Of a stretch of DNA of 64,000 nucleotides, positions 23,219 to 54,634 are shown piece after piece; position 1 is the first letter of the stretch; the number at the start of each line of letters is the position of its first letter. The stretch is from an uncultured delta proteobacterium (GTDB taxonomy: Bacteria; Myxococcota_A; UBA9160). The position numbers and the translations under genes were made by a program. Below the pieces are notes generated by a model. That model saw only the letters and a list, made by a program, of their open reading frames with translations, had not been told where the DNA came from and made no database searches. The stretch is from positions 2,814,933-2,878,932 of the forward strand of contig CAVZDA010000009.1 of assembly GCA_963773895.1 (NCBI GenBank). Direction: 5' to 3'.

Positions 23219-23310
23219 TGGCGGAGAGGGAGGGATTCGAACCCCCGGTACCCTTGCGGGTACACCTGATTTCGAGTCAGGCCCGTTCAACCGGACTCCG
23301 GCACCTCTCC
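23219..23310 (-). tRNA. tRNA-Ser (anticodon CGA)
   Basis: The reverse complement reads GGAGAGG...CCTCTCCGCCA, giving a 7-bp acceptor stem. The anticodon stem CCTGA/TCAGG has the loop CTCGAAA. A long variable arm is present, a T-loop GGTTCGAATCC, and an encoded CCA. Confidence 0.85.
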
Positions 23311-44605: not shown

Positions 44606-45418
44606 ATGGCCGAGCCCAGCCTGTCGTCCAGCCCCGGTCCGCGCCGCCGCGCGCTCGTGACCGGCGCGTCCTCCGGCATCGGCGAGGCGTTCGCCGAGCG
44701 GCTGGCGCGCGACCAGTACGACCTGATCCTCGTCGCGCGGACGCGCGAGCGGCTCGACGCGGTCGCGAAGCGCCTCGTCGAGAGCCGCGGCATCGGCGTC
44801 GAGGTGCACCCGGCGGACCTCGGCAGGGCCGAAGAGCTGCGCACCGTCGAGGAGCGGCTCGCGTCGGACCCCACCCTCGATCTGCTCGTGAACAACGCCG
44901 GCTTCGGCAACTACGGCACGGTCGCGGAGATCGACCCGGACCGGCTCGAGGCCGAGATCCTGCTGAACGTCGTCGCGCTGGTGCGTCTCACGCGCGCGGC
45001 GCTGCCCCCGATGATCCAGCGCGCCTCGGGCGCGATCATCAACGTGTCGTCGATGGCCGGGCTCCAGCCGACGCCGTTCAACGCGAACTACGGCGCCACC
45101 AAGTCCTTCGTCAACAGCTTCACCGAGGCGATCCACGAGGAGGTGCGGGGGACGGGCGTGCGGATGCAGGTGCTCCAGCCGGGCTTCACCCGCACCGAGT
45201 TCCAGGCGCGCGCGGGCATGGAGACGTCCGCCATCCCGGACGCCGCCTGGATGGACGCGGGAGAGGTCGTGGAGGCGTCGCTGGCCGCCCTGGCCCGCGG
45301 CGATCTCGTGTGCGTGCCGGGCGGGGTGAACAAGGCCGTGGCGGCGTTCGCGTCCGCGCTGCCGCGCGCGCTCATGCGGCGCGTCACCGGCGCGGCGGCG
45401 CGTCGCTTCGGTCACTGA
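44606..45418 (+). CDS. Short-chain dehydrogenase/reductase (SDR)
   Basis: TGASSGIG, NNAG and the catalytic YGATK are all present. Confidence 0.85.
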   Translation: MAEPSLSSSPGPRRRALVTGASSGIGEAFAERLARDQYDLILVARTRERLDAVAKRLVESRGIGVEVHPADLGRAEELRTVEERLASDPTLDLLVNNAGFGNYGTVAEIDPDRLEAEILLNVVALVRLTRAALPPMIQRASGAIINVSSMAGLQPTPFNANYGATKSFVNSFTEAIHEEVRGTGVRMQVLQPGFTRTEFQARAGMETSAIPDAAWMDAGEVVEASLAALARGDLVCVPGGVNKAVAAFASALPRALMRRVTGAAARRFGH

Positions 45419-46286
45419 GGCCTCCGGCGAGCCGGACCAGGAGACCCGCCGCGAGCCACGCTTCCAGGAAGGCGGCCGCGCACGGGGCCGCCTCCGCGTC
45501 GCCCACGCTTCCGGCGATCCGCTCGCACAACGCGCCGAAGGGCTCGCCCCGCTGAACCGCAGCGAGCGCGTCGGCCTCGAGGGCCGAGATCGCGCGGTAG
45601 CGCACGCGCTCCTCGTTCCGCCATACACGAATGTGAGTCGATTCCGGCCCGAGGACGGGCGGACCGGCCCAGACGGCGTCGTCCTCATCGCCGTCGTAGC
45701 GCTCGCGGACCGCGTGCACCGGCCAGGCGAGGCCGAGGAGCGAGAGCGACGGCGTCGCCTCGAAGCGGAGCTCGCCCCAGGCATCATGAGGCACGGCCGC
45801 GAGCGTCTCGCGCTCGAGCACCGGAGCGTCCGCGGCGTCGAACGCTTCGAGGACCGCCCACTCGAGGCGCGCGAGGTCGGCCGCGTAGGCGCAGCGGCGG
45901 CCGAAGATCGAGGCGAAGGGAGCGGTGTCCAGGTGCTCCGCGAGCCGGGCGCCCGCGTGGCGCAGGGAGGGCCGCGTCGGCGGGTGCGCCATCAGGTACG
46001 TCTTCACGAGATCGTGGAATGCGTCGGGTCCGAGCGCGCGCGCGAGGGCGCCGAAGTCGTCTCGCAGGCAATCGTGGATCCGCACGAAGTACGCGTTCGC
46101 GTAGACGGCGACGCGCTCCCCGGGCGCGAGCCCGCGATCGCCGCGCAGCAGCGTCGCGAGCGCCGCGCCGGAGGCGTCGCCCTCGGCCGCGAGCGCGGCC
46201 TGCACGCCTTCAGGCCCGGTGATCAGCCGCCAGAGCCGGCGCTGCACCGCGCCCAGCGAGCCGGGCTCCGCCGTCGCTTCCTTCAC
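45384..46286 (-). CDS. DUF2063-family protein (MbnC/BufC-like partner of the DUF692 enzyme)
   Basis: It lies downstream of, and overlapping, the DUF692 gene. The N-terminal LQRRLWRLI helix is conserved in DUF2063. The start (ATG 46286, with GTG 46247 or 46205 possible) overlaps the upstream gene. Confidence 0.6.
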   Translation of the reverse strand: MKEATAEPGSLGAVQRRLWRLITGPEGVQAALAAEGDASGAALATLLRGDRGLAPGERVAVYANAYFVRIHDCLRDDFGALARALGPDAFHDLVKTYLMAHPPTRPSLRHAGARLAEHLDTAPFASIFGRRCAYAADLARLEWAVLEAFDAADAPVLERETLAAVPHDAWGELRFEATPSLSLLGLAWPVHAVRERYDGDEDDAVWAGPPVLGPESTHIRVWRNEERVRYRAISALEADALAAVQRGEPFGALCERIAGSVGDAEAAPCAAAFLEAWLAAGLLVRLAGGLSDRSDAPPRR

Positions 46287-47157
46287 GCGTCTCCTCCGCC
46301 GTCACCCGCCGCAGGATCTCCCGCGCGCGCGCGGCCTCCGCCACCAGCGTCTCGAGCTCGGGGATCTCGTCGTCCCACTCGATCAGCGTCGAGACCGGCC
46401 CGAGCCGAAGGATCGTCGCCTCGTAGAGCGACCACACTTCGTCGCGTACGGGATGGTCGTGGGTGTCGATGAGGAGCGGGCCCTCCTGGCGGTGGCCCGC
46501 GAGATGGATCTGGAACACGCGATCGCCCGGGATCGCTCCGAGGTAGCGCAGCGGGTCGAAGCCGTGGTTGTGCGCGCTGACGAAGACGTTGTTCACGTCG
46601 AGGAGGATCCCGCAGTCCGCGGCCTCGGCAACGCGCGTCAGGAACTCCCACTCCGGCATCGCGTCCGCCCGATAGGCGAAGTAGGAGGACACGTTCTCGA
46701 GCGCGATGCGCCGGCCGAGCCGGTCCTGCACCTCGCGCACGCGTACGGCGACGTGGCGGAGCGCCGCTTCGGTGTAGGGGAGCGGCACGAGGTCGTGCAG
46801 GTTCCGGCCGGCGATGCCGGTCCAGCACAGATGGTCCGAAAGCCAGGCCGGCTCGAAGCGCCCTGCGAGCGCGGCGAGGTCGCCGAGATAGAGTCCGTCG
46901 AGCGGATCGTCCGAGCCCACGTTGAGCGACACGCCGTGCAGCACGAGCGGGAAGCGCGCACGCACCTCCGCGAGCACGCGCGGGGGCCGGCCTCCCGGCA
47001 CCAGAAAGTTCTCGGAGATCGCCTCGAAGAAGTCGACGCCGAGCTCCCCGGCCTCCGACTCGAGGATCCGGGGATAGTGCTTCGGGCGCAGGCCCACCCC
47101 GACGCCCAGGAAGGGCGCGTCGCCCGGACGCGCTCGCGTTGAAGTCGGAGCCTGCAT
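46210..47157 (-). CDS. DUF692/UPF0276-family TIM-barrel protein (MbnB/BufB-like RiPP-modifying enzyme)
   Basis: LGVGVGLRPKHY, FFEAISENF, HGVSLNVGS and a HLAGH-type metal-binding motif are present, typical of MbnB-like di/tri-iron enzymes. Confidence 0.75.
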   Translation of the reverse strand: MQAPTSTRARPGDAPFLGVGVGLRPKHYPRILESEAGELGVDFFEAISENFLVPGGRPPRVLAEVRARFPLVLHGVSLNVGSDDPLDGLYLGDLAALAGRFEPAWLSDHLCWTGIAGRNLHDLVPLPYTEAALRHVAVRVREVQDRLGRRIALENVSSYFAYRADAMPEWEFLTRVAEAADCGILLDVNNVFVSAHNHGFDPLRYLGAIPGDRVFQIHLAGHRQEGPLLIDTHDHPVRDEVWSLYEATILRLGPVSTLIEWDDEIPELETLVAEAARAREILRRVTAEETREGSDGGARLAGRGAAPALAADHRA

Positions 47158-47206
47158 TGCGCGACGCGGTGTGGGCGGGCCGCGGGACGCGGCCCGCCCG
47201 CGTCCG

Positions 47207-47464
47207 CTAGCTCTTCTTCGCCTTGGCCGCCTTGGCGGCGTCGCACTCGGCCTGGGTCAGGTTCTTGAAGCCGTGGCCGCCGCAGCCGTTCTTCCCGGCG
47301 CAGCTGTTCGAGGCCGACTTGCAGTCGCTTTGGCCCTTGCACGAGTTCACGCCCTCGCACTTCACCTTCGCGTCCTTGTCCGTATCCGCCGCGAAGGCGC
47401 TGTGCGCCCCCGCGACGAACAGACCTGCGACGGCGGACGCCAAGGCGACGTTCTTCCAGCTCAT
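47207..47464 (-). CDS. Bufferin-like RiPP precursor (DUF2282-like): a small secreted Cys-rich peptide
   Basis: An ATG follows a GGAGGA RBS. The signal peptide is [26 protein letters not shown] 60-aa core with 6 Cys follows ([29 protein letters not shown]...AECD). The NSCAG and KCEG blocks resemble the DUF2282 consensus. It lies immediately upstream of the DUF692/DUF2063 pair. Confidence 0.6.
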
Positions 47465-47528
47465 TCGGATCCTCCAATGGCCTCTCGCTGGAGGCCGGCC
47501 ATTTCGATGCCGCTCGCCCGGGGTGGTT

Positions 47529-47860
47529 TCAGCCTGCTCCAGGCCCCGGGTCCGCGCTCCCCTGCCCGACGAGGATGCGCCGGATTGCGGCCGTGCGGTA
47601 GCGGAAGATGCGGTCCAGCTCCCGCTGTACGAGGGGCCGCACGAGCTCACCGAGGGGCGGAAGCGGAAGGGCCCAGCGCACCTCGTCGGCGGGTAGTCGA
47701 TCCGCGCGCCCTCGCGCAGGTCGAGCGGGAGCGGCGTCAGGATGCGGAAGCGCAGCTCGGGCGGCGTGATGCGCTCGAGGTTCGCGGCATCGGCGAAGAA
47801 CGCGAACACGTCCTTGCGCGGCAGCGGCAGCTCGAGCCGCGCGCGGAGCACGTGCTCCAC
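47529..47860 (-). pseudogene. SRPBCC-family (polyketide cyclase/dehydrase-like) gene remnant with an internal deletion and frameshift
   Basis: One frame gives the N-terminal part [56 protein letters not shown]. The C-terminal part [31 protein letters not shown] is in a different frame, and about 50 codons are missing between them. The total length is not a multiple of three. Confidence 0.4.
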
Positions 47861-47868
47861 CTCGCGCC

Positions 47869-49278
47869 TCAGCGGCCGCGCGCACGCGCCCGTGCGGCCT
47901 CGTAGCGGCGGAGCGCGAGGATGCGCCGCTCCGGGTGGCTCACGATCGGCTCCGGATAGGACTTCGGCGGACGTGCGGCCTCCCACGGCGCGTGCACGAA
48001 ACGGTCCTCCACCCCCGCGAGCTCTGGGACGAAGCGGCGCACGAAGGCGCCTTCGGGATCGAACCGGGCGCCCTGCGACACCGGGTTGAAGATCCTGAAG
48101 TAGGGCTGCGCGTCCGTCCCGGTGGACGCCGCCCACTGCCAGCCGCCGTTGTTGCTCGCCGGTTCGCCGTCGACGAGCCGCCGGAAGAAGAAGTCCTCGC
48201 CGAGCCGCCAGTCGAGGAGGAGGTCCTTCGTGAGGAAGCTGGCGACGATCATGCGCAGGCGGTTGTGCATCCAGCCGGTCGTCGCGAGCTGACGCATCGC
48301 CGCGTCGACGATGGGGTAGCCCGTGCGGCCCTCGCGCCACGCCGCGAACCCTTCCGGATCTTCGTTCCACTGGAGCGTCTCGAGCTCGCGCCGATACGGT
48401 GCGCGCTGCACGCGCGGGTGCTCCGCGAGGACGGCGTGATAGAAGTCGCGCCACACGAGCTCGTCGATCCACTTGCGCGCGCCCTCGGCCGCCGACCGGT
48501 CGTCGCGCGCGCAGGCCTGAGCTGCGGCGACGCAGATGCGGACCGAGATCGCGCCGAACCTCAGGTACGGCGAGAGACGCGACGTGCCGTCGACCGCCGG
48601 GACGTCGCGGTCCCGCGCGTATGCCCGGACCGGGCCCGAGAGGAACCGCGCGAGGCGCCCGCGCGCCGCCTCCTCGCCAGCGGGCGGGAGCTCGGTGTCG
48701 TCGCCTCCGAAGCCGAGGGCCTTCGCGTCGGGGAGGCCGTCCGACGGCAGATCCGCGACGGGCGGGGGGAGGCGCGATACGCCGGCCGGCCGCTGCGGCT
48801 CGCTGGCGAGGCGCCGGTGCCACGCGTTGCGGTAGGGCGTGTAGACGGCGTAGGGGCCGCCCGCGGCCGAGCGGACCTCGGTGCTCTCGAAGATCACGTG
48901 GTCGCGGCAGTCGGCGACGCGCCTGCCCGCGCGTTCGAGCGCGGCGCGCACTCGGGCATCGCGCCGCCGTCCGAGCGGCGTGTCGCTGCGGTTCCACGTC
49001 ACGAGGCCCGCATGGGCTTCGGCCGCGAGCTGCGGGATCTCGGCTGCCGGGTCGCCGCGGCGCAGCACGAGCTTCGACCCGCGGCGTGCGAGCGCCTCGT
49101 CGAGCCGGGCGAGGCCGTCGAGCAGGAACCGCACGCGCGGAGCGCCGGTCCGCGGGCTCGCGAGGATCGCGTCGTCGAGCACGAACACGGGGACCAGCGC
49201 GTCCGCGCCGGCCGCCCGGGCGAGCGCGGTGTTGTCCTCGAGGCGCAGGTCGTTGCGGAACCAGTGCAGCGCGCGCAT
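47869..49278 (-). CDS. phr: Deoxyribodipyrimidine photolyase
   Basis: The N-terminal photolyase domain ([13 protein letters not shown]) is present. The FAD-binding domain carries WREFYY-like, GWMHNRLRM and [11 protein letters not shown] motifs. Confidence 0.9.
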
Positions 49279-49691
49279 CAGACCGCCGTCGAGCGTCCTT
49301 CCTTCGGAACGGCGCAGGTCCCGTGGGCGCACCCACCTTCGACCGCTCCCTCCCGGCCCGTCCAGCGGAGGCGGTTCCGCGCGAAGGTGCGATAGGCGGC
49401 GTCGAAGATCGGACGGAGGACGGGCCAGCGCGTCGGCGCCACGAGCCAGCCGAGGCCCACCGCGCCGTAGAGGCGCCGGAAGACCTCGACGCCCTCGATC
49501 CGCGCGCCGTCCGGGAGGACGCCGTGGATGCGCGCCATCAGCTCGGCGTGCGCGACGCCGTAGCGGGTCGCGTCGAAGCCGGGCGCCGCGATGTCCTCGA
49601 AGTCGATCCGGCCCCGCCCCCGATCGAGCCGGCGGAGCGTCGCGATCTCGCGCGCGCACAGCGGGCAGTCCCCGTCGTAGAGGACGCGCAC
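49278..49691 (-). CDS. DCC-family thiol-disulfide oxidoreductase (DUF393)
   Basis: The [10 protein letters not shown] motif lies near the N-terminus. The GTG start was chosen because the upstream 49 codons look non-coding. It overlaps the photolyase start. Confidence 0.6.
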
Positions 49692-49759
49692 GAGCCAGGT
49701 CGGGGCGGGCGTCGTCGGCCCCGTTTGCGTGTGGAGGCTCCTTCCGTCCTGCACGGCGT

Positions 49760-50632
49760 TCAGACCGCCGCCGACAGGCTGCGCGAGGCGCCGCGCAAGT
49801 GCTCGGCGAGCCGCTGGAGCTCGCGCATCGAGCGACACCAGGAGGTGGCGCCGAGCTCGCCGACCAGCTCCGGACGCATCCCGCGGCCGCCGAGGATCAG
49901 CGCGGAGCCTGCCTCGCGGACGGCCTCCGCGAGCCGCGCGCGCAGGGCGGCCGGGCTGGCCGCCGAAGGCGGGATCGAGAGCGAGAGCGCCACGAGAGCG
50001 GGAGCGTCGCGCTCCACCGCGTTCCCGAGCGAGTCGAGCGGGGTGTCCGCGCCGAAGTTCACGGCGCGATAGCCGACCTCGCAGAGCGTCAGCTCGGCGC
50101 AGAGGCCGGCGAGCACGTACGGGTCGCCGGACAGTCCCGCCACGAACGCGAGCGGCCGGTCCGAGCCGGGTCCGTAGGTGCGGAGCAGCGCGTGCAGCGC
50201 GCGGATCGCGATCGCGGTCGCGGAGTGCTCGCGCGTCACCGGGATCTCACCGGCCTCCCACCCGTGCCCGATGGACTCCATCGCGGGAGCGATCCAATCG
50301 TCGGCGAGCTCCGCAGCGCTCATCCCTCCGGCGTAGACCCGCTCGAGCAGCGAAATCGCCGCGTGCGGCCGTCCCTGAGCCAGCAGGTCGCGCAGGGCCG
50401 CGGGCGTCGCTTCGCCGCCGAGGAGGAGCCCGAGGGCGATCGGGTCGACCAGGGTCAGGCCCGCCTCCCGGACGTACCCGAGGGCCGCGTGCAGCGGGAT
50501 GCGGCGATGCCCGCCCGGGGTCTTCCGGGCCGGAACCCGACCCTGGTCGATCCACCGCTTCACGGTCGACTCCCCGAGCCCGAGAGCGCGCGCGAGCTGG
50601 AGCGGCGAGACGTACTTCTCCGAGTCGGTCAA
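49760..50632 (-). CDS. HTH (excisionase/MerR-like) transcriptional regulator with a C-terminal B12-binding-like Rossmann domain (CarH/LitR-like)
   Basis: The N-terminal HTH is [21 protein letters not shown]. The C-terminal domain has B12-binding-domain topology ([21 protein letters not shown]...LVALSLSI...LILGG). DPY replaces the canonical DxHxxG His ligand. Confidence 0.5.
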
Positions 50633-50740
50633 AAGAGCCCTTGCCTCCGAGGAACGAACCGGACCTTAGGGGGTGATCTGAAATCGTCAAGAATTTCGGC
50701 GAGATCACGCCAGCGCTCTCGGCCTCCTCCATACCGTCAG

Positions 50741-50793
50741 TTGACACCGCCGCGGAATCCGGGATGATTGTGAACGTTTTGAACGATTAATCG
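50741..50793 (+). promoter_or_regulatory. Divergent promoter/operator region: a -35-like TTGACA plus TGAACG direct repeats and a CGATTAATCG palindrome
   Basis: This is an unusually AT-rich intergenic stretch between the regulator at 49760..50632 and the sigma-factor gene. A perfect 10-bp palindrome lies at 50784..50793. Confidence 0.3.
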
Positions 50794-50813
50794 AATCGAG
50801 GGGACTCCAGAAG

Positions 50814-52241
50814 ATGAGCGACGACCCCCAACACGATGCCGCCTCGAGCCCGACCGATGAGTTCGCTCCTCGCCGCCCGGACGCGGGCCTCGGCCTCGAC
50901 TCGGCGGCGCTGCTGCGCCGCTACCTGCGCGAGATCGCGCCGCTGCCCACGTTGACGCGCGACCAGGAGGGAGCGCTCGCGCGCGCGCTCGAGCGCGAGA
51001 CGGCGGCGTGGGCCGCGGCGGTGCGCGCGATTCCGTTCGCTGCGCGGTTCGTGGTGGAGCGGTGGCGCAGGATCCGCGACGAGGCGCGGGTGACGGCCAC
51101 GCTCTCCGCGCTCCACCGCGACGGGAGCGGGCAGGACTACAGCGGGCGGATCGACGCGGCCCTCGCGCGGGTCGAGCGCGCACTCCGGCGATTCGACGCC
51201 GCGGCCGCCGGGACCGGGGCCGCCCCGGCTGGACCTCGGCTGCTGGCGCTTCGCCGGTCGCTCGCCCGCTCGCTCGCCGCGGCGGACGTGTCGCTCGAGA
51301 TCGCGCGCGAGGCGCACGTCGAGCTCTGCCGCCGGGTCGCGGAGCTGGAGGGCGCGCGCGCGTCCGCACTGCGCGCCGCCCTCGAGCGCGAGGCGGGCCT
51401 TTCCGTCCGCGAGCTGAGGCCGGCGGTGCGCGAGCTGGACGCGCTCCACGCGGCGCTATCGCGCACCAAGAACACGTTCGTGCGTCACAACCTGAAGCTC
51501 GTCGTCGCCGTGGCCAAGGACTTCCGCGGCATGGGCATCTCGTTCCTCGACCTGATCCAGGAGGGGAACCTCGGCCTCATCCGCGCGGTGGAGAAGTTCG
51601 ATCATCGCCGTGGCTTCAAGTTCTCCACCTACGCAGTCTGGTGGATCCGTCAGTCGTTCATCCGGGTGGTGCAGAACCACTCGCGGACCGTGCGGCTCCC
51701 CTCCCACGTCTACGACCTCATGCTCCGCTACGAGCGCGCGAACCGGAGCCTCGCCCGCAGGTTCGGCCGCGATCCGTCGCCGACCGAGCTGCGCGAGGCG
51801 CTCGGGATCGACTCCGAGGAGATGGACCTGCTGCTCGAGGTCCGGCAGAAGACGATCTCGATGGAGGCACTGGTGCCCGGCACGGAGTCGAAGCGCGTGA
51901 AGGACGCGTTGCCCGACCCGCGCGCCGACCGCCCGGGCCTCGCCCTCGATGGAGTGAAGCTGCAGCGGGAGCTGGAGGCGCTCCTCGGGGGGCTCGACAC
52001 GCGGGAGCAGAAGGTCCTCATCTGGCGCTTCGGGCTGCGCGGCGAGGAGGACCACACCCTCCAGGAGATCGGCGAGAAGCTCGGGATCTCCCGGGAGCGC
52101 GTCCGCCAGATCGAGGCCGGCGCGCTCTCGAAGCTGCGCCCCACGGTCGCCCAGCTCGGGCTCCGCACGCTGGTCGAGGCGCCGGACCACGAGCCGGGCG
52201 TCACCGGGACGCGTTACGCGGCCACGGCAGGGCACGCGTGA
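50814..52241 (+). CDS. RNA polymerase sigma-70 family factor (RpoD-like, regions 1.2 to 4)
   Basis: Region 2 reads [40 protein letters not shown]. Regions 3 and 4 are present, with the 4.2 HTH ([20 protein letters not shown]). Confidence 0.85.
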
Positions 52242-52273: not shown

Positions 52274-53338
52274 ATGCTGGAGGGCGTGAGCGTGCCCCGG
52301 AGGTTGCCGGCGGAGCGCGCGGCCACGTGGGGCCGCCGCGTGCTGACCATCTCCGGTGTGACGCTCGCCTGGCTCGCCGTGCTCGGCTCGCTCCCCATGC
52401 TGCTTCCGCTGGCGGCGCTCCACGACGTCCTGCGACGCACGCGCTTCACCGCGTCGCGCGTGGCGCTGTTCGTCGCGCTCTTCCTCACTTGCGAGGCGGT
52501 CGGCCTCGCCGCCGCGAGCTTCCTCTTCCTGTACGAAGCGCTCGCGCGCCCCGTGGGCCGCGCGCGCGCCCGCGCGGACGATCGCTTCCATGCGCTCGAG
52601 CGGCGCTGGGCGGAGGCGATCTTCCGGGGCGCGCAGGCGATCTTCGGCTTCCGCGTCGTCCTGGAGCCGGGCAGCGACACGGGCCTCGGCCCGATGCTCG
52701 CGTTCGTGAGGCACGCGAGCATGGGCGACACCCTGCTCCCGGTGGTGCTGCTGACGCCGCGCGGTCTGCGACTCCGGTACGTGCTCAAGCACGAGCTCCG
52801 TTTCGACCCGTGCATGGACGTCGTGGGGCATCGGCTTCCCAACACGTTCGTGCGTCGGGGCTCGGGGGACGCTCCGCGCGAGATCGCGGACATCGCACGC
52901 CTCGCCGAGGGGCTGGGTCCGCGTGACGCCGTCGTGATCTACCCGGAGGGAACGCGGTTCACGCAGGCCAAGCGCGAGCGCGTCCTCGCCAAGCTCGAGG
53001 CGGCGGGCGACCCGGAGGCGGCTGCGCGCGCCCGCCGCCTGTCCAACGTCCTCCCGCCGCACCTCGGCGGTCCCCTCGGCCTGCTGGAGCGGAGCACGGC
53101 GGCGGACGTCGTGTTCCTGGCGCATGCGGGCTTCGAGGGCATCGCGACGTTCTGGGACCTCTGGGCCGGGGCGCTCGTGGGCGCGACGATCCGGGTCGGG
53201 ATGTGGCGCGTGCCGTTCGCGGAGATCCCCAAGGACCGGGAGGGCCGCATCGAGTGGCTCCACGCGAACTGGCGCCGGATGGACGCCTGGGTGGGCGCGC
53301 AGCATGCGGACCCGAAGGTCGGATGGCAGCCTTCCTGA
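52274..53338 (+). CDS. Lysophospholipid acyltransferase-like protein (PlsC/LPLAT family)
   Basis: The N-terminus has TM helices. HxxxxD (FVRHASMGDTLL) and IYPEGTR motifs are present. An alternative GTG start at 52238 is possible. Confidence 0.65.
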   Translation: MLEGVSVPRRLPAERAATWGRRVLTISGVTLAWLAVLGSLPMLLPLAALHDVLRRTRFTASRVALFVALFLTCEAVGLAAASFLFLYEALARPVGRARARADDRFHALERRWAEAIFRGAQAIFGFRVVLEPGSDTGLGPMLAFVRHASMGDTLLPVVLLTPRGLRLRYVLKHELRFDPCMDVVGHRLPNTFVRRGSGDAPREIADIARLAEGLGPRDAVVIYPEGTRFTQAKRERVLAKLEAAGDPEAAARARRLSNVLPPHLGGPLGLLERSTAADVVFLAHAGFEGIATFWDLWAGALVGATIRVGMWRVPFAEIPKDREGRIEWLHANWRRMDAWVGAQHADPKVGWQPS

Positions 53339-54114
53339 ACGTCCTGCCCGTCACGGCCGCGGCGCTCGTCGCCGGCTTCCTCGTGGTCTGGGCGATCTCG
53401 GTGGCGAGGCGAGACGCCAGCATCGTCGACATCCTGTGGGGTCTCGGCTTCGTCCTCGTCGCCGGCGCGGCCTTCGCGGCGGGCGGGCCCTCTACGCCGC
53501 GCGCCCGGCTCGCGCTGCTGCTCACCGGGCTCTGGGGCGTGCGTCTCGCCGGCTATCTCGCCTGGCGCAACCACGGCCAGGGCGAGGACTTCCGCTATCG
53601 CGCGATGCGCAAGCGTCACGGCGACCGGTTTCCAGTCGTGAGTCTCTACAGCGTGTTCGGGCTCCAGGCCGCGCTGTGCTGGCTGATCTCCTGGCCCGTC
53701 CAGGCCGCGATCGCGTCCCCCGGTCCGGCTGCTTGGACCGCGCTCGACGGGGTCGGCGTTGCGCTCTTCGTCGTGGGCTTCGTCTTCGAGAGCGTGGGTG
53801 ACCTGCAGCTCGCGCGCTTCAAGGCCGATCCCGCAAATCGCGGCCGCGTGATGGACCGGGGGCTCTGGGCGTGGACGCGCCATCCGAACTACTTCGGCGA
53901 CGCCGTCGTCTGGTGGGGGCTCTTCGCGCTCGCACTCTCGACGCCGGCGGGCTGGATCACGCTGCCCGCCCCGGCGCTGATGACCTTCCTGCTGCTCCGG
54001 GTATCCGGGGTGGCGCTCCTCGAGCGCTCGCTCCGGAAGACGCGACCGGGGTACGCGGACTACGTGGCGCGCACGAGCGCGTTCGTGCCGCTCCCGCCGC
54101 GCCGCCGGAGCTGA
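53323..54114 (+). CDS. DUF1295-family membrane protein (steroid 5-alpha-reductase / ICMT-like fold)
   Basis: It is polytopic and carries GLWAWTRHPNYFGD, the conserved C-terminal motif of the family. Confidence 0.6.
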   Translation: MAAFLNVLPVTAAALVAGFLVVWAISVARRDASIVDILWGLGFVLVAGAAFAAGGPSTPRARLALLLTGLWGVRLAGYLAWRNHGQGEDFRYRAMRKRHGDRFPVVSLYSVFGLQAALCWLISWPVQAAIASPGPAAWTALDGVGVALFVVGFVFESVGDLQLARFKADPANRGRVMDRGLWAWTRHPNYFGDAVVWWGLFALALSTPAGWITLPAPALMTFLLLRVSGVALLERSLRKTRPGYADYVARTSAFVPLPPRRRS

Positions 54115-54139: not shown

Positions 54140-54634
54140 TCAGCCGTCGAACAGCTCTTCGAGCGCGGGCCAGTCGATCGCGCTCTGCGCGGCGAACGCG
54201 CGGAGGAGAAGCTCGCGATCGGAGGCGTCCTCGCCCTTCCGGAAGGTCGCCACGGCCTTCGCGAGCACGTCCGCCGGAGGCGACGCCGGCGCGTCCCCCT
54301 TCAATGCGCCGTCTTCGTGCTCGAGCCCGATGATGTCGAGCCACTCGATCAGGAGCGGCTTCTTGCACTGGAGGAAGTAGACGGCGAGCAGCTCCTCGGC
54401 GAGGTCGCTCGCCGCCACGCGGGACAGCGTGCGGCGCACGGCGTCGGCGCGCTTCTCGAACGGCTGGCGCATCAGGAAGACGGGCCGCGCGCGGAGGGCC
54501 GCGCTCGCGATCGCCACGGCCTGCACGAAGGCGCCCGGCGACGCGTCGGCGATCGCCTTCAGCACCTCGCGCGCCCGCTCGGGCGGAAGCGATGCGAACA
54601 CCTGGTACGAACGCATGGCGCCGTTGTCTAGCAC
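54140..54634 (-). CDS. Hypothetical protein
   Basis: A 164-aa ORF with coding-like composition. No recognisable motif was found. Confidence 0.4.
   Translation of the reverse strand: MLDNGAMRSYQVFASLPPERAREVLKAIADASPGAFVQAVAIASAALRARPVFLMRQPFEKRADAVRRTLSRVAASDLAEELLAVYFLQCKKPLLIEWLDIIGLEHEDGALKGDAPASPPADVLAKAVATFRKGEDASDRELLLRAFAAQSAIDWPALEELFDG

Follow-up and report, generated by a model that had tools for sequence, protein, structure and literature searches.

The Regulator Locus

The 64-kb window analyzed here (G+C content about 74%), taken from contig CAVZDA010000009.1 of an uncultured delta proteobacterium, contains a gene for a putative sensor-regulator, which we call REG. It is followed on the minus strand by genes for a DCC1-like (DUF393) protein and a photolyase, and a spacer separates it from a divergently oriented gene for a sigma-70 family protein (Table 1). 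As judged from sequence comparisons and a structural model, REG is a homolog of the light receptors CarH and CtMerR with a tyrosine at the position of the cobalt-ligand histidine.

Table 1. Features of the locus. Positions are those of the 64-kb window, except where a relative is named.
Feature	Position	Strand	Description
Regulator (REG) gene	49760-50632	minus	TTG start, 290 aa; same start called on the identical metagenomic contig L081
REG Shine-Dalgarno GGAGG	50644-50648	minus	11 nt upstream of TTG; footprint block conserved in relatives
Candidate REG-DCC-photolyase promoter	50663-50690	minus	TTGACG-N17-TAAGGT; '-10' CCTAAGGT conserved, non-consensus
DCC1-like/DUF393 gene	49278-49754	minus	158 aa from GTG at 49754
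Class-I-type cyclobutane pyrimidine dimer photolyase gene	47869-49278	minus	469 aa; ATG at 49278
REG-sigma intergenic spacer	50633-50813		181 bp; G+C 0.61 against about 0.74 in the flanks
Predicted sigma-gene promoter, sigma-70 type	50741-50768	plus	TTGACA-N16-GATGAT, 10 of 12 consensus positions; TTGACA at 50741-50746
Candidate operator, 9-bp-period direct repeat	50771-50785		TGAACGTTTTGAACG on the plus strand; AATCGTTCA followed by AAACGTTCA in REG orientation
Palindrome CGATTAATCG	50784-50793		Overlaps the second repeat and the AT-rich flank
Alternative sigma-70 family gene	50814-52241	plus	475 aa; Pfam regions 1.2, 2, 3 and 4, without region 1.1; divergent from REG
Acyltransferase gene	52274-53338	plus	Pfam; 32-nt gap after the sigma gene
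DUF1295 gene	53323-54114	plus	Pfam; 16-nt overlap with the acyltransferase gene
SRPBCC/Polyketide_cyc remnant	47529-47860	minus	151-bp internal deletion and frameshift; junction near 47690-47693
bufA ECF-like promoter pattern	about 47500-47535	minus	Window version TGAAAC...GGCATCGAA
bufA pattern in relatives	L083:6316-6414, L003:9223-9323, L006:8405-8505, L009:8289-8389		
Bufferin precursor gene bufA	47207-47464	minus	85 aa, 6 Cys; no Pfam match
MbnB/DUF692 gene	46210-47157	minus	Pfam
DUF2063 gene	45384-46286	minus	Pfam

The initial annotation had proposed a light-response module of three overlapping minus-strand genes, namely a regulator with an excisionase/MerR-type helix-turn-helix and a B12-binding Rossmann topology as in CarH and LitR, a DUF393 protein and a class I photolyase, set apart from an RpoD-like sigma gene by an atypically AT-rich spacer. 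The three genes, their assignments and the base composition of the spacer are all upheld by the present analysis. The start codon of the photolyase gene is corrected to the ATG at 49278 instead of a site further upstream, and it shares a single nucleotide with the DCC stop codon (TGATG), a tight junction which suggests that these two proteins are made together. REG and the DCC gene, on the other hand, probably do not overlap. The DCC gene most likely starts at the GTG codon located 5 nt past the REG stop codon, and this start is preferred because the resulting protein of 158 residues is also called on L081, L083 and L084. The RpoD label stands in part: the divergent gene encodes a member of the sigma-70 family, but its score against the NCBIfam RpoD models is far under the equivalog cut-off (270 bits vs 555), and we therefore consider it to be an alternative rather than a housekeeping sigma factor.

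The DCC protein matches Pfam PF04134 over the entire profile (positions 1-113 of 113; E = 1.7e-29; 103.7 bits vs a cut-off of 27.8) and carries at its N-terminus the YDGDCPLC motif noted previously (DxxCxxC/CxxC), which places it in the DCC1-like family. A search of solved structures returned none for this protein. As a member of a thiol-disulfide oxidoreductase family, its predicted role could be in redox maintenance during photo-oxidative stress. The photolyase has the two domains of class I enzymes, DNA_photolyase in the N-terminal part (E = 1.3e-48) and FAD_binding_7 in the C-terminal part (E = 1.4e-82). Its best NCBIfam models are the 8-hydroxy-5-deazaflavin type TIGR03556 (425 bits, E = 3e-127) and the E. 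coli type PRK10674 (415 bits, E = 3e-124). Since both scores are below the equivalog cut-offs (885 and 506 bits, respectively), the protein is assigned at the level of family and class and not at that of antenna type.

On the other side of the spacer, the order of the sigma, acyltransferase and DUF1295 genes is kept in the two relatives L082 and L083, and the three genes probably share a transcription unit. In Chlamydomonas, the genes that singlet oxygen induces in a SAK1-dependent manner include one for a DUF1295 protein (PMC4067076), and by analogy the presence of such a gene here may hint at membrane-lipid remodelling within the same response.

Predicted Domain Structure and Pocket of the Regulator

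The N-terminus of REG (about residues 8-56) is predicted to form a winged helix of the HTH_17/BldC type. It matches Pfam HTH_17 (34.1 bits, cut-off 27) and scores above the cut-off of the excisionase model TIGR01764 ('excise'), whereas the score for Pfam MerR is just under the threshold (26.7 vs 28.2 bits). Residues 10-44 also match the NCBIfam BldC model NF033787 (E = 4.6e-7; 29.6 bits vs a family cut-off of 77). On the basis of these profiles, the DNA-binding domain belongs to the MerR-like superfamily, in which it stands nearer to HTH_17/BldC than to the canonical MerR proteins.

The remainder of the protein resembles the sensor module of the B12 photoreceptors. A four-helix bundle (Pfam B12-binding_2, E = 9.2e-10) carries the residues G122-H-G-W125 and, nine residues further on, E135-H136. 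It is followed by a Rossmann B12-binding-like domain with G169-D-P-Y172, G194-A-D-T-P198, S217-x-S219 and G248-G249. The motifs that define CarH are Wx9EH in the bundle and D/ExHxxG/P...SxT/V...GG in the Rossmann domain, of which Wx9EH contacts the upper axial adenosyl group, the light-labile ligand (PMC9304148). In REG, both Wx9EH and the SxT/V...GG remainder are present at the expected spacing, and D170-P-Y172-V-L-A takes the place of D/ExHxxG/P, with Y172 at the position of the histidine that ligates cobalt. The substitution, already pointed out in the initial annotation, is borne out by alignment of GDPY (residues 169-172) with GDLH of CtMerR (8JBS; H204), GERH of the Thermus CarH protein TtCarH (H177) and GEWH/GDWH of the photocobilins. 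Likewise, REG has three of the four parts of the signature GxxW, EH, GxxH and GxxxP that was derived for CtMerR, an experimentally demonstrated adenosylcobalamin (AdoCbl) receptor for green light (PMC11796333). These are GHGW, EH and GADTP, and in the fourth part GxxH is replaced by GDPY.

Searches with phmmer against the PDB recovered CtMerR (E = 1.7e-25, residues 3-257), the photocobilins (about 1e-12), TtCarH (8.5e-9) and methionine synthase MetH (1e-5), and the alignments with the last two reach residue 262-278. An AlphaFold2 model built on 47 homologs was of high predicted quality (predicted local distance difference test score 91.6, predicted template modelling score 0.89). It includes a complete Rossmann domain with strands at residues 161-167, 189-192, 213-217, 244-248 and 264-266. 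The top Foldseek matches of the model were full-length TtCarH, the cobalamin-binding domain of CtMerR and the photocobilins. For TtCarH and the CtMerR domain, the template modelling scores were 0.80-0.82 and the root-mean-square deviation 2.4-2.5 A over about 205 residues. The similarity of the C-terminal domain to B12-binding domains, on which the proposed module had been made to depend, is thus found both in sequence, with CarH and MetH, and in the predicted fold.

Comparison With Known Regulators

The best sequence match to REG is CtMerR of Chloracidobacterium thermophilum (8JBS/8JBT; 'group 2' of SignatureFinder). The two proteins share the three-part architecture, the GxxW, EH and GxxxP motifs and the fold, and their alignment includes the wing TPGGHRR of the DNA-binding domain. 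They differ in the lower axial ligand, which is His204 in CtMerR and is replaced by tyrosine in REG, and the identity over the cobalamin-binding domain is only about 25-26%. The CtMerR study does not describe an operator or a regulon (PMC11796333).

CarH and the class I LitR proteins of Thermus, Myxococcus, Bacillus and Streptomyces are AdoCbl-dependent repressors of photoprotection genes that are released by light. Like REG, they combine a winged-helix DNA-binding domain with a four-helix bundle that carries Wx9EH and with a Rossmann domain for B12, and LitR has a sigma factor, LitS, as its partner. CarH binds as an oligomer to direct repeats, of which there are three of 11 bp in Thermus. In REG, however, the axial histidine is absent, and the residue after the tryptophan is E126 rather than histidine, so that a bis-His light state is impossible. 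The DNA-binding domain of REG is also closer to HTH_17/BldC, and its candidate operator is built of CGTTCA cores that recur every 9 bp.

Two further groups belong to the same superfamily and still mediate light responses, although they have abandoned the canonical ligation of B12. CarA of Myxococcus is B12-independent and keeps the DxH motif but has lost the tryptophan of Wx9EH (PMC9304148). The class II LitR proteins of Pseudomonas (PplR/PmlR2) have only the B12-binding_2 four-helix bundle and no Rossmann domain (PMC9758184). REG is the converse case, with the bundle and the Rossmann pocket intact and only the histidine replaced. Membership in class II LitR was rejected in view of the complete Rossmann domain, and membership in CarA in view of the opposite pattern of losses.

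Tyrosine at the Ligand Position as a Family Trait

A genome scan with one genome per species yielded 364 confirmed REG loci, the best 80 of which are used for all counts of loci given here. In addition, an exhaustive HMMER search of 1.84 billion cluster representatives (50% identity) gave 293 matching clusters at E <= 1e-30 and, at the looser limit of E <= 1e-10, 1425; motif counts are based on the top 150 representatives. The best 80 loci come from Myxococcota, Planctomycetota and Methylomirabilota, with scattered assignments to other phyla. Position 172 is a tyrosine in 76 of them and a histidine in none. Among the 150 representatives, tyrosine is found in 130, followed by serine (7), phenylalanine (6), histidine (5), alanine (1) and threonine (1). 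Members with histidine are scattered among those with tyrosine and have 43-48% identity to their nearest Tyr-type relatives. The change from histidine to tyrosine is a character of the family and not a local defect.

The rest of the pocket is strongly conserved. G122, W125, E135, H136, D170, G194, P198, G248 and G249 are invariant in the 47 homologs used for the model, where Y172 is present in at least 90%, and they are invariant or nearly so in the 150 representatives. In the latter set, W125 is present in 142, E135 in 149 and S217 in 131 sequences, position 136 is either histidine (114) or arginine (36), and G194, P198, G248, G249 and the wing residue His42 are invariant. Together with His42, the residues R26 and W27 of the recognition helix are invariant or nearly so. 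This pattern indicates that the pocket is under strong purifying selection and that some ligand, or a ligand-like interface, has probably been retained. In our view, the GDPY proteins form a new and large class of variants within the superfamily of B12-domain regulators. We found no description of a Tyr or His-off variant of the CarH-like photoreceptors in the searchable literature.

A more far-reaching proposal, which we make only tentatively, is that the GDPY proteins represent a widespread and previously unrecognized class of corrinoid photoreceptors. These would hold AdoCbl in a base-off/His-off state with an aromatic residue under the ring, have photochemistry and spectral tuning unlike those of CarH, bind to a direct-repeat operator with the core CGTTCA and gate a dedicated sigma factor.

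An alternative, which we consider rather unlikely, is that REG is free of cofactor in the manner of CarA and class II LitR, binds to the same repeats and is released by an oxidative signal or by a partner protein, such as an antirepressor, a light-oxygen-voltage (LOV) protein or a cryptochrome/photolyase. The absence of the axial histidine and the tolerance of phenylalanine, serine and alanine at its position are consistent with this alternative. There are precedents in the B12-independent CarA (PMC9304148) and in PmlR2, through which an adjacent short-LOV protein acts in a Pseudomonas light response that includes photolyase induction (PMC9758184), and a flavoprotein photolyase is encoded directly downstream of REG in the Myxococcota loci. 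However, CarA has lost the tryptophan of Wx9EH and class II LitR the Rossmann half, whereas REG keeps both halves of the module. The invariance across phyla of all pocket residues except the histidine is hard to explain without a ligand, and no conserved partner besides the sigma factor was found in the neighborhoods of the family.

A 9-bp Direct Repeat as the Candidate Operator

The sequence elements that had been listed for the spacer, TTGACA, two copies of TGAACG and the palindrome CGATTAATCG, are all present, and the palindrome had been suggested as the operator. Comparison with related loci points instead to the TGAACG repeats as the conserved element. They are arranged as TGAACG-N3-TGAACG, with copies at 50771 and 50780, and a repeat-finding program reports this repeat as well. 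In REG orientation, each 9-bp unit consists of an AT-rich triplet followed by CGTTCA. The exact sequence TGAACGNNNTGAACG occurs once in the window, which contains no copy with a single mismatch.

An alignment of the spacer with the corresponding sequences of L082 and L083 (85% relatives) and of L001 and L002 (70% relatives) revealed four conserved footprint blocks. These are the AAACGTTCAAAACGTTCA repeat, TGTCAA, which is the -35 element of the sigma promoter on the opposite strand, TTCTTGAC ... CCTAAGGT, which corresponds to REG's own promoter, and the GGAGG sequence. At the position of the palindrome, the relatives carry TATAAA or TAAAAA, so that only an AT-rich flank is conserved, and the palindrome was rejected as an operator. 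An inverted repeat that brackets the REG -35 element, GGGGTGATCT/AGATCACGCC (50670-50679 and 50702-50711; 10 nt, 90% complementary), was likewise rejected; it is not conserved in L083, L001 and L002 and has probably arisen by chance.

The repeat is strongly enriched upstream of REG homologs. The pattern CRTTCA-N3-CRTTCA has 21 matches within -400 to +30 of the REG start in the 80 loci, and two in the remaining 1.66 million strand-bases (both strands), both of which are likewise upstream. Allowing for at most one mismatch to CGTTCA-N3-CGTTCA, there are 61 upstream matches in 44 of the 80 loci, 59 of them in REG orientation, and 13 matches elsewhere, which corresponds to a 110-fold ratio in density. 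The loci with the element span Myxococcota, Planctomycetota, Methylomirabilota and other groups. We consider it highly probable that the direct repeat is the binding site of REG.

The 9-bp unit matches, by analogy, the binding mode of BldC-type winged helices. BldC of Streptomyces binds head-to-tail to 9-bp direct repeats, AATTNNNN(C), which have an AT-rich part followed by C, and inserts the wing histidine into a narrowed minor groove (PMC5859096). Like the corresponding domain of REG, it is a small MerR-like/excisionase-like winged helix with a histidine in the wing, but BldC is a DNA-binding domain of 68 residues without a sensor, whereas that of REG is fused to a sensor domain. Membership of REG in the BldC family was rejected in view of this fusion and the low score against the BldC model; it is in the predicted direct-repeat target that the two would work alike.

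The window spacer has no second copy of the operator at up to two mismatches, whereas L003-L006 and L008 have one near the REG -35 element. In three loci of the Planctomycetota type (L024:5802-5960, L028:5827-5890 and L076:1480-1560), the main repeat is accompanied, at distances of up to about 130 bp, by further single copies of AAACGTTCA or by a second pair in tandem. These extra units suggest that a higher oligomer binds at several sites or forms a loop.

Predicted Promoters and the Sigma Factor Gene

The sequence TTGACA-N16-GATGAT upstream of the sigma gene is the only promoter-like match in the interval 47000-51000, with 0.1 expected in shuffled sequences, and the TTGAC of its -35 element is conserved in all Myxococcota relatives. 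The candidate operator starts 2 nt after the -10 element and covers the predicted start site. The element has the same placement, overlapping the predicted +1, in L001 and L002, fills the spacer between -35 and -10 in L003, and overlaps the spacer or the -10 element with one of its halves in L004, L007, L008 and L009. In several Planctomycetota, it is located between a TATGAT-like -10 element and the Shine-Dalgarno sequence of REG, and REG is followed by the sigma gene. Thus, the predicted output gated by the element includes the sigma factor in every arrangement. Repression is favored over activation of the MerR kind because the site overlaps a near-consensus promoter that should need no activator. 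It is likely, in our view, that the sigma gene is under the control of REG.

The candidate promoter upstream of REG, which would serve the REG-DCC-photolyase operon, is conserved in L082/L083, L005, L006, L007 and L009. A search of the window for TTGAC-N16-18-TARGKT as a test for a sigma regulon returned the REG copy only, with 0.03 expected. We speculate that the partner sigma factor could read this promoter.

Gene Neighborhoods of the Regulator Family

A divergent sigma gene with 52-67% identity is located beside REG in all nine Myxococcota loci (L001-L009), as well as in L082/L083. Outside of the Myxococcota, about half of the loci have a sigma-70 family gene next to REG; one for a protein with regions 2 and 4 lies immediately downstream in 23 of 61 loci, and about 11 of 67 loci have it upstream. 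The partnership with a sigma factor is the most general feature of the REG family, and no other conserved partner was found in the neighborhoods. A pairing of regulator and sigma factor is known from LitR and LitS in Streptomyces (PMC11519972). The partner of REG in the Myxococcota differs in being a full-length sigma-70 protein similar to groups 2 and 3 and not an extracytoplasmic function (ECF) sigma factor.

The array proposed as a module in the initial annotation is conserved, with the DCC gene as an optional member. The photolyase gene is located directly downstream of REG, or of the DCC gene, in seven of the nine Myxococcota loci and in L083, and the other two contigs end before this point. 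The DCC gene is present in L001, L003, L005, L083 and L084, whereas L006, L008 and L009 lack it; nothing relevant on DUF393 together with photolyase was found in the searchable literature. In L041 and L069, the photolyase gene is divergent from REG with the repeat in between. Less frequent neighbors in the other phyla include genes for photolyase, the photolyase-related DPRP, amine oxidases similar to phytoene desaturase, GTP cyclohydrolase I (folE) and polyketide-cyclase/SRPBCC proteins. As judged from these gene contents, the light theme in the neighborhoods is real but not universal. Among L010-L080, the upstream divergent neighbor encodes a phosphoribosyltransferase domain (PF00156) in 18 of 67 loci and a fasciclin protein in 7 of 67.

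It might be argued that REG senses a signal other than light, such as the availability of cobalamin, another tetrapyrrole, for example heme, or the redox state, and that the link to photolyase is specific to one lineage. Most members outside of the Myxococcota indeed have no photolyase neighbor, and the commonest other neighbors are the phosphoribosyltransferase-domain and fasciclin genes. Furthermore, a cobalamin-binding domain with arginine at the position of the histidine bound only hydroxocobalamin and was light-independent (PMC11796333). However, the adenosyl-contacting Wx9EH and GxxW motifs are conserved in the family, the closest characterized homologs are all photoreceptors, and photolyase, carotenoid-type desaturase and folE recur as neighbors in different phyla. 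A non-light signal appears improbable to us.

A Model for the Gating of a Sigma Factor Cascade

We propose that REG is a sensor and repressor in one component, of the same kind as CarH, LitR and CtMerR, and that it gates a sigma factor cascade for photoprotection, a model to which we give an even chance. In the uninduced state, an oligomer of REG would sit with its BldC-like winged helices head-to-tail on the repeats AATCGTTCA and AAACGTTCA, and thereby occlude the promoter of the sigma, acyltransferase and DUF1295 genes. A signal received at the C-terminal B12-binding-like module would then release REG from the DNA. The signal would most probably be light acting on a corrinoid that is held without an axial ligand from the protein ('His-off'), with Tyr172 placed under the ring. 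Upon release, the sigma factor would accumulate and direct the transcription of photoprotective genes, and a plausible target is the REG-DCC-photolyase operon via TTGAC-N17-CCTAAGGT. Both light dependence and cofactor binding are inferred from homology and gene context, and for light as the signal we see the balance as level.

Several observations weigh against this model. The cobalt-ligand histidine, which is the defining feature of the B12 photoreceptors, is missing from REG, and the binding of a corrinoid is only a prediction. Residue 172 is not an obligatory metal ligand, because phenylalanine, serine, alanine and threonine occur at this position in the family. The structural modelling suggested in the initial annotation supports the CarH/CtMerR fold with Y172 in the place of the histidine. 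The light-independent domain with arginine at this position, mentioned above, counts here as well. REG scores 63.2 bits against the NCBIfam CarH equivalog NF052513, which has a cut-off of 400. Of the two Pfam models that had been suggested for a profile search, B12-binding_2 was found, whereas the Rossmann model PF02310 gave no match to REG even at E <= 10; the homology of the Rossmann half is accepted despite this result because of the phmmer matches in the PDB and the match in fold. Outside of the Myxococcota, photolyase is rarely adjacent to REG (about 5 of 71 loci). Furthermore, the single copy of the operator in the window is about 75 bp upstream of the REG -35 element, and the photolyase operon therefore shows no evident sign of autoregulation. 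Finally, the transcription start sites used to position the operator are predicted ones.

Implications

The interest of these findings lies less in the single locus than at the level of the family, which raises the question whether an axial ligand is needed for B12 photoreception. At present, the axial histidine is part of the signature by which B12 photoreceptors are recognized, and the GxxH filter of SignatureFinder excludes the GDPY family. If the Tyr-type proteins bind a corrinoid and respond to light, axial ligation by the protein would be dispensable for B12 photoreception. They would then represent a large and phylogenetically broad group of switches for light or photo-stress, including those in the Planctomycetota and in uncultured Myxococcota, and optogenetics would gain a new pair of operator and repressor. 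Should B12 not be bound, the family would represent a clean natural case of a sensor domain that has stayed nearly intact after the loss of its cofactor ligand. In either case, an operator and a sigma-gene target have been predicted for the REG family, which makes the question directly testable.

The Bufferin Operon and Other Features of the Window

A bufferin operon with genes for the precursor BufA, an MbnB/DUF692 protein and a DUF2063 protein is located downstream of the photolyase gene. The initial annotation had suggested that it may be co-regulated with the light-response genes. The pattern GAAyC-N16-CATCGA, which resembles an ECF promoter, is located 25-50 nt upstream of bufA in five genomes, and the window has no TGAACG repeat near bufA. 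Since the operon thus has a conserved promoter-like pattern of its own and no nearby repeat, we regard it as an independently promoted neighbor, and simple co-regulation is not indicated. Read-through from the photolyase gene into the bufferin genes is possible.

It is very unlikely, in our judgment, that the palindrome CGATTAATCG serves as the operator of a symmetric MerR-type dimer and that the light regulon extends to the bufferin cluster. The palindrome does exist in the spacer, the photolyase gene is followed by the bufferin genes here as well as in L003, L006, L009 and L083, and no terminator-like site is predicted between the photolyase gene and bufA. However, the 85% and 70% relatives lack the palindrome but have kept the direct repeat, the HTH_17/BldC-like DNA-binding domain is of a type that binds direct repeats, and the five-genome promoter pattern upstream of bufA speaks for separate control. 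The direct repeat remains our candidate for the operator.

The segment between the photolyase gene and bufA contains the remnant of an SRPBCC/Polyketide_cyc gene, which in relatives comes after the photolyase gene. Intact versions are found in L083 (160 aa), L001 (156 aa) and L003 (178 aa), and the deletion was identified by alignment to L083. The frameshifted reading frame continues without a stop codon into the open reading frame of the bufferin precursor. The deletion represents either a pseudogene or an assembly error.

A scan of the 64-kb window with Rfam detected no cobalamin riboswitch, and a tRNA gene on the minus strand (23222-23310) is its sole match at the gathering threshold. An open reading frame of 164 codons without a Pfam match is located on the minus strand beyond the DUF1295 gene (54140-54634). 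A reading frame of the same size is called at the same position in L082 (3912-4406), and that of the window is likely to be a real, conserved hypothetical gene.

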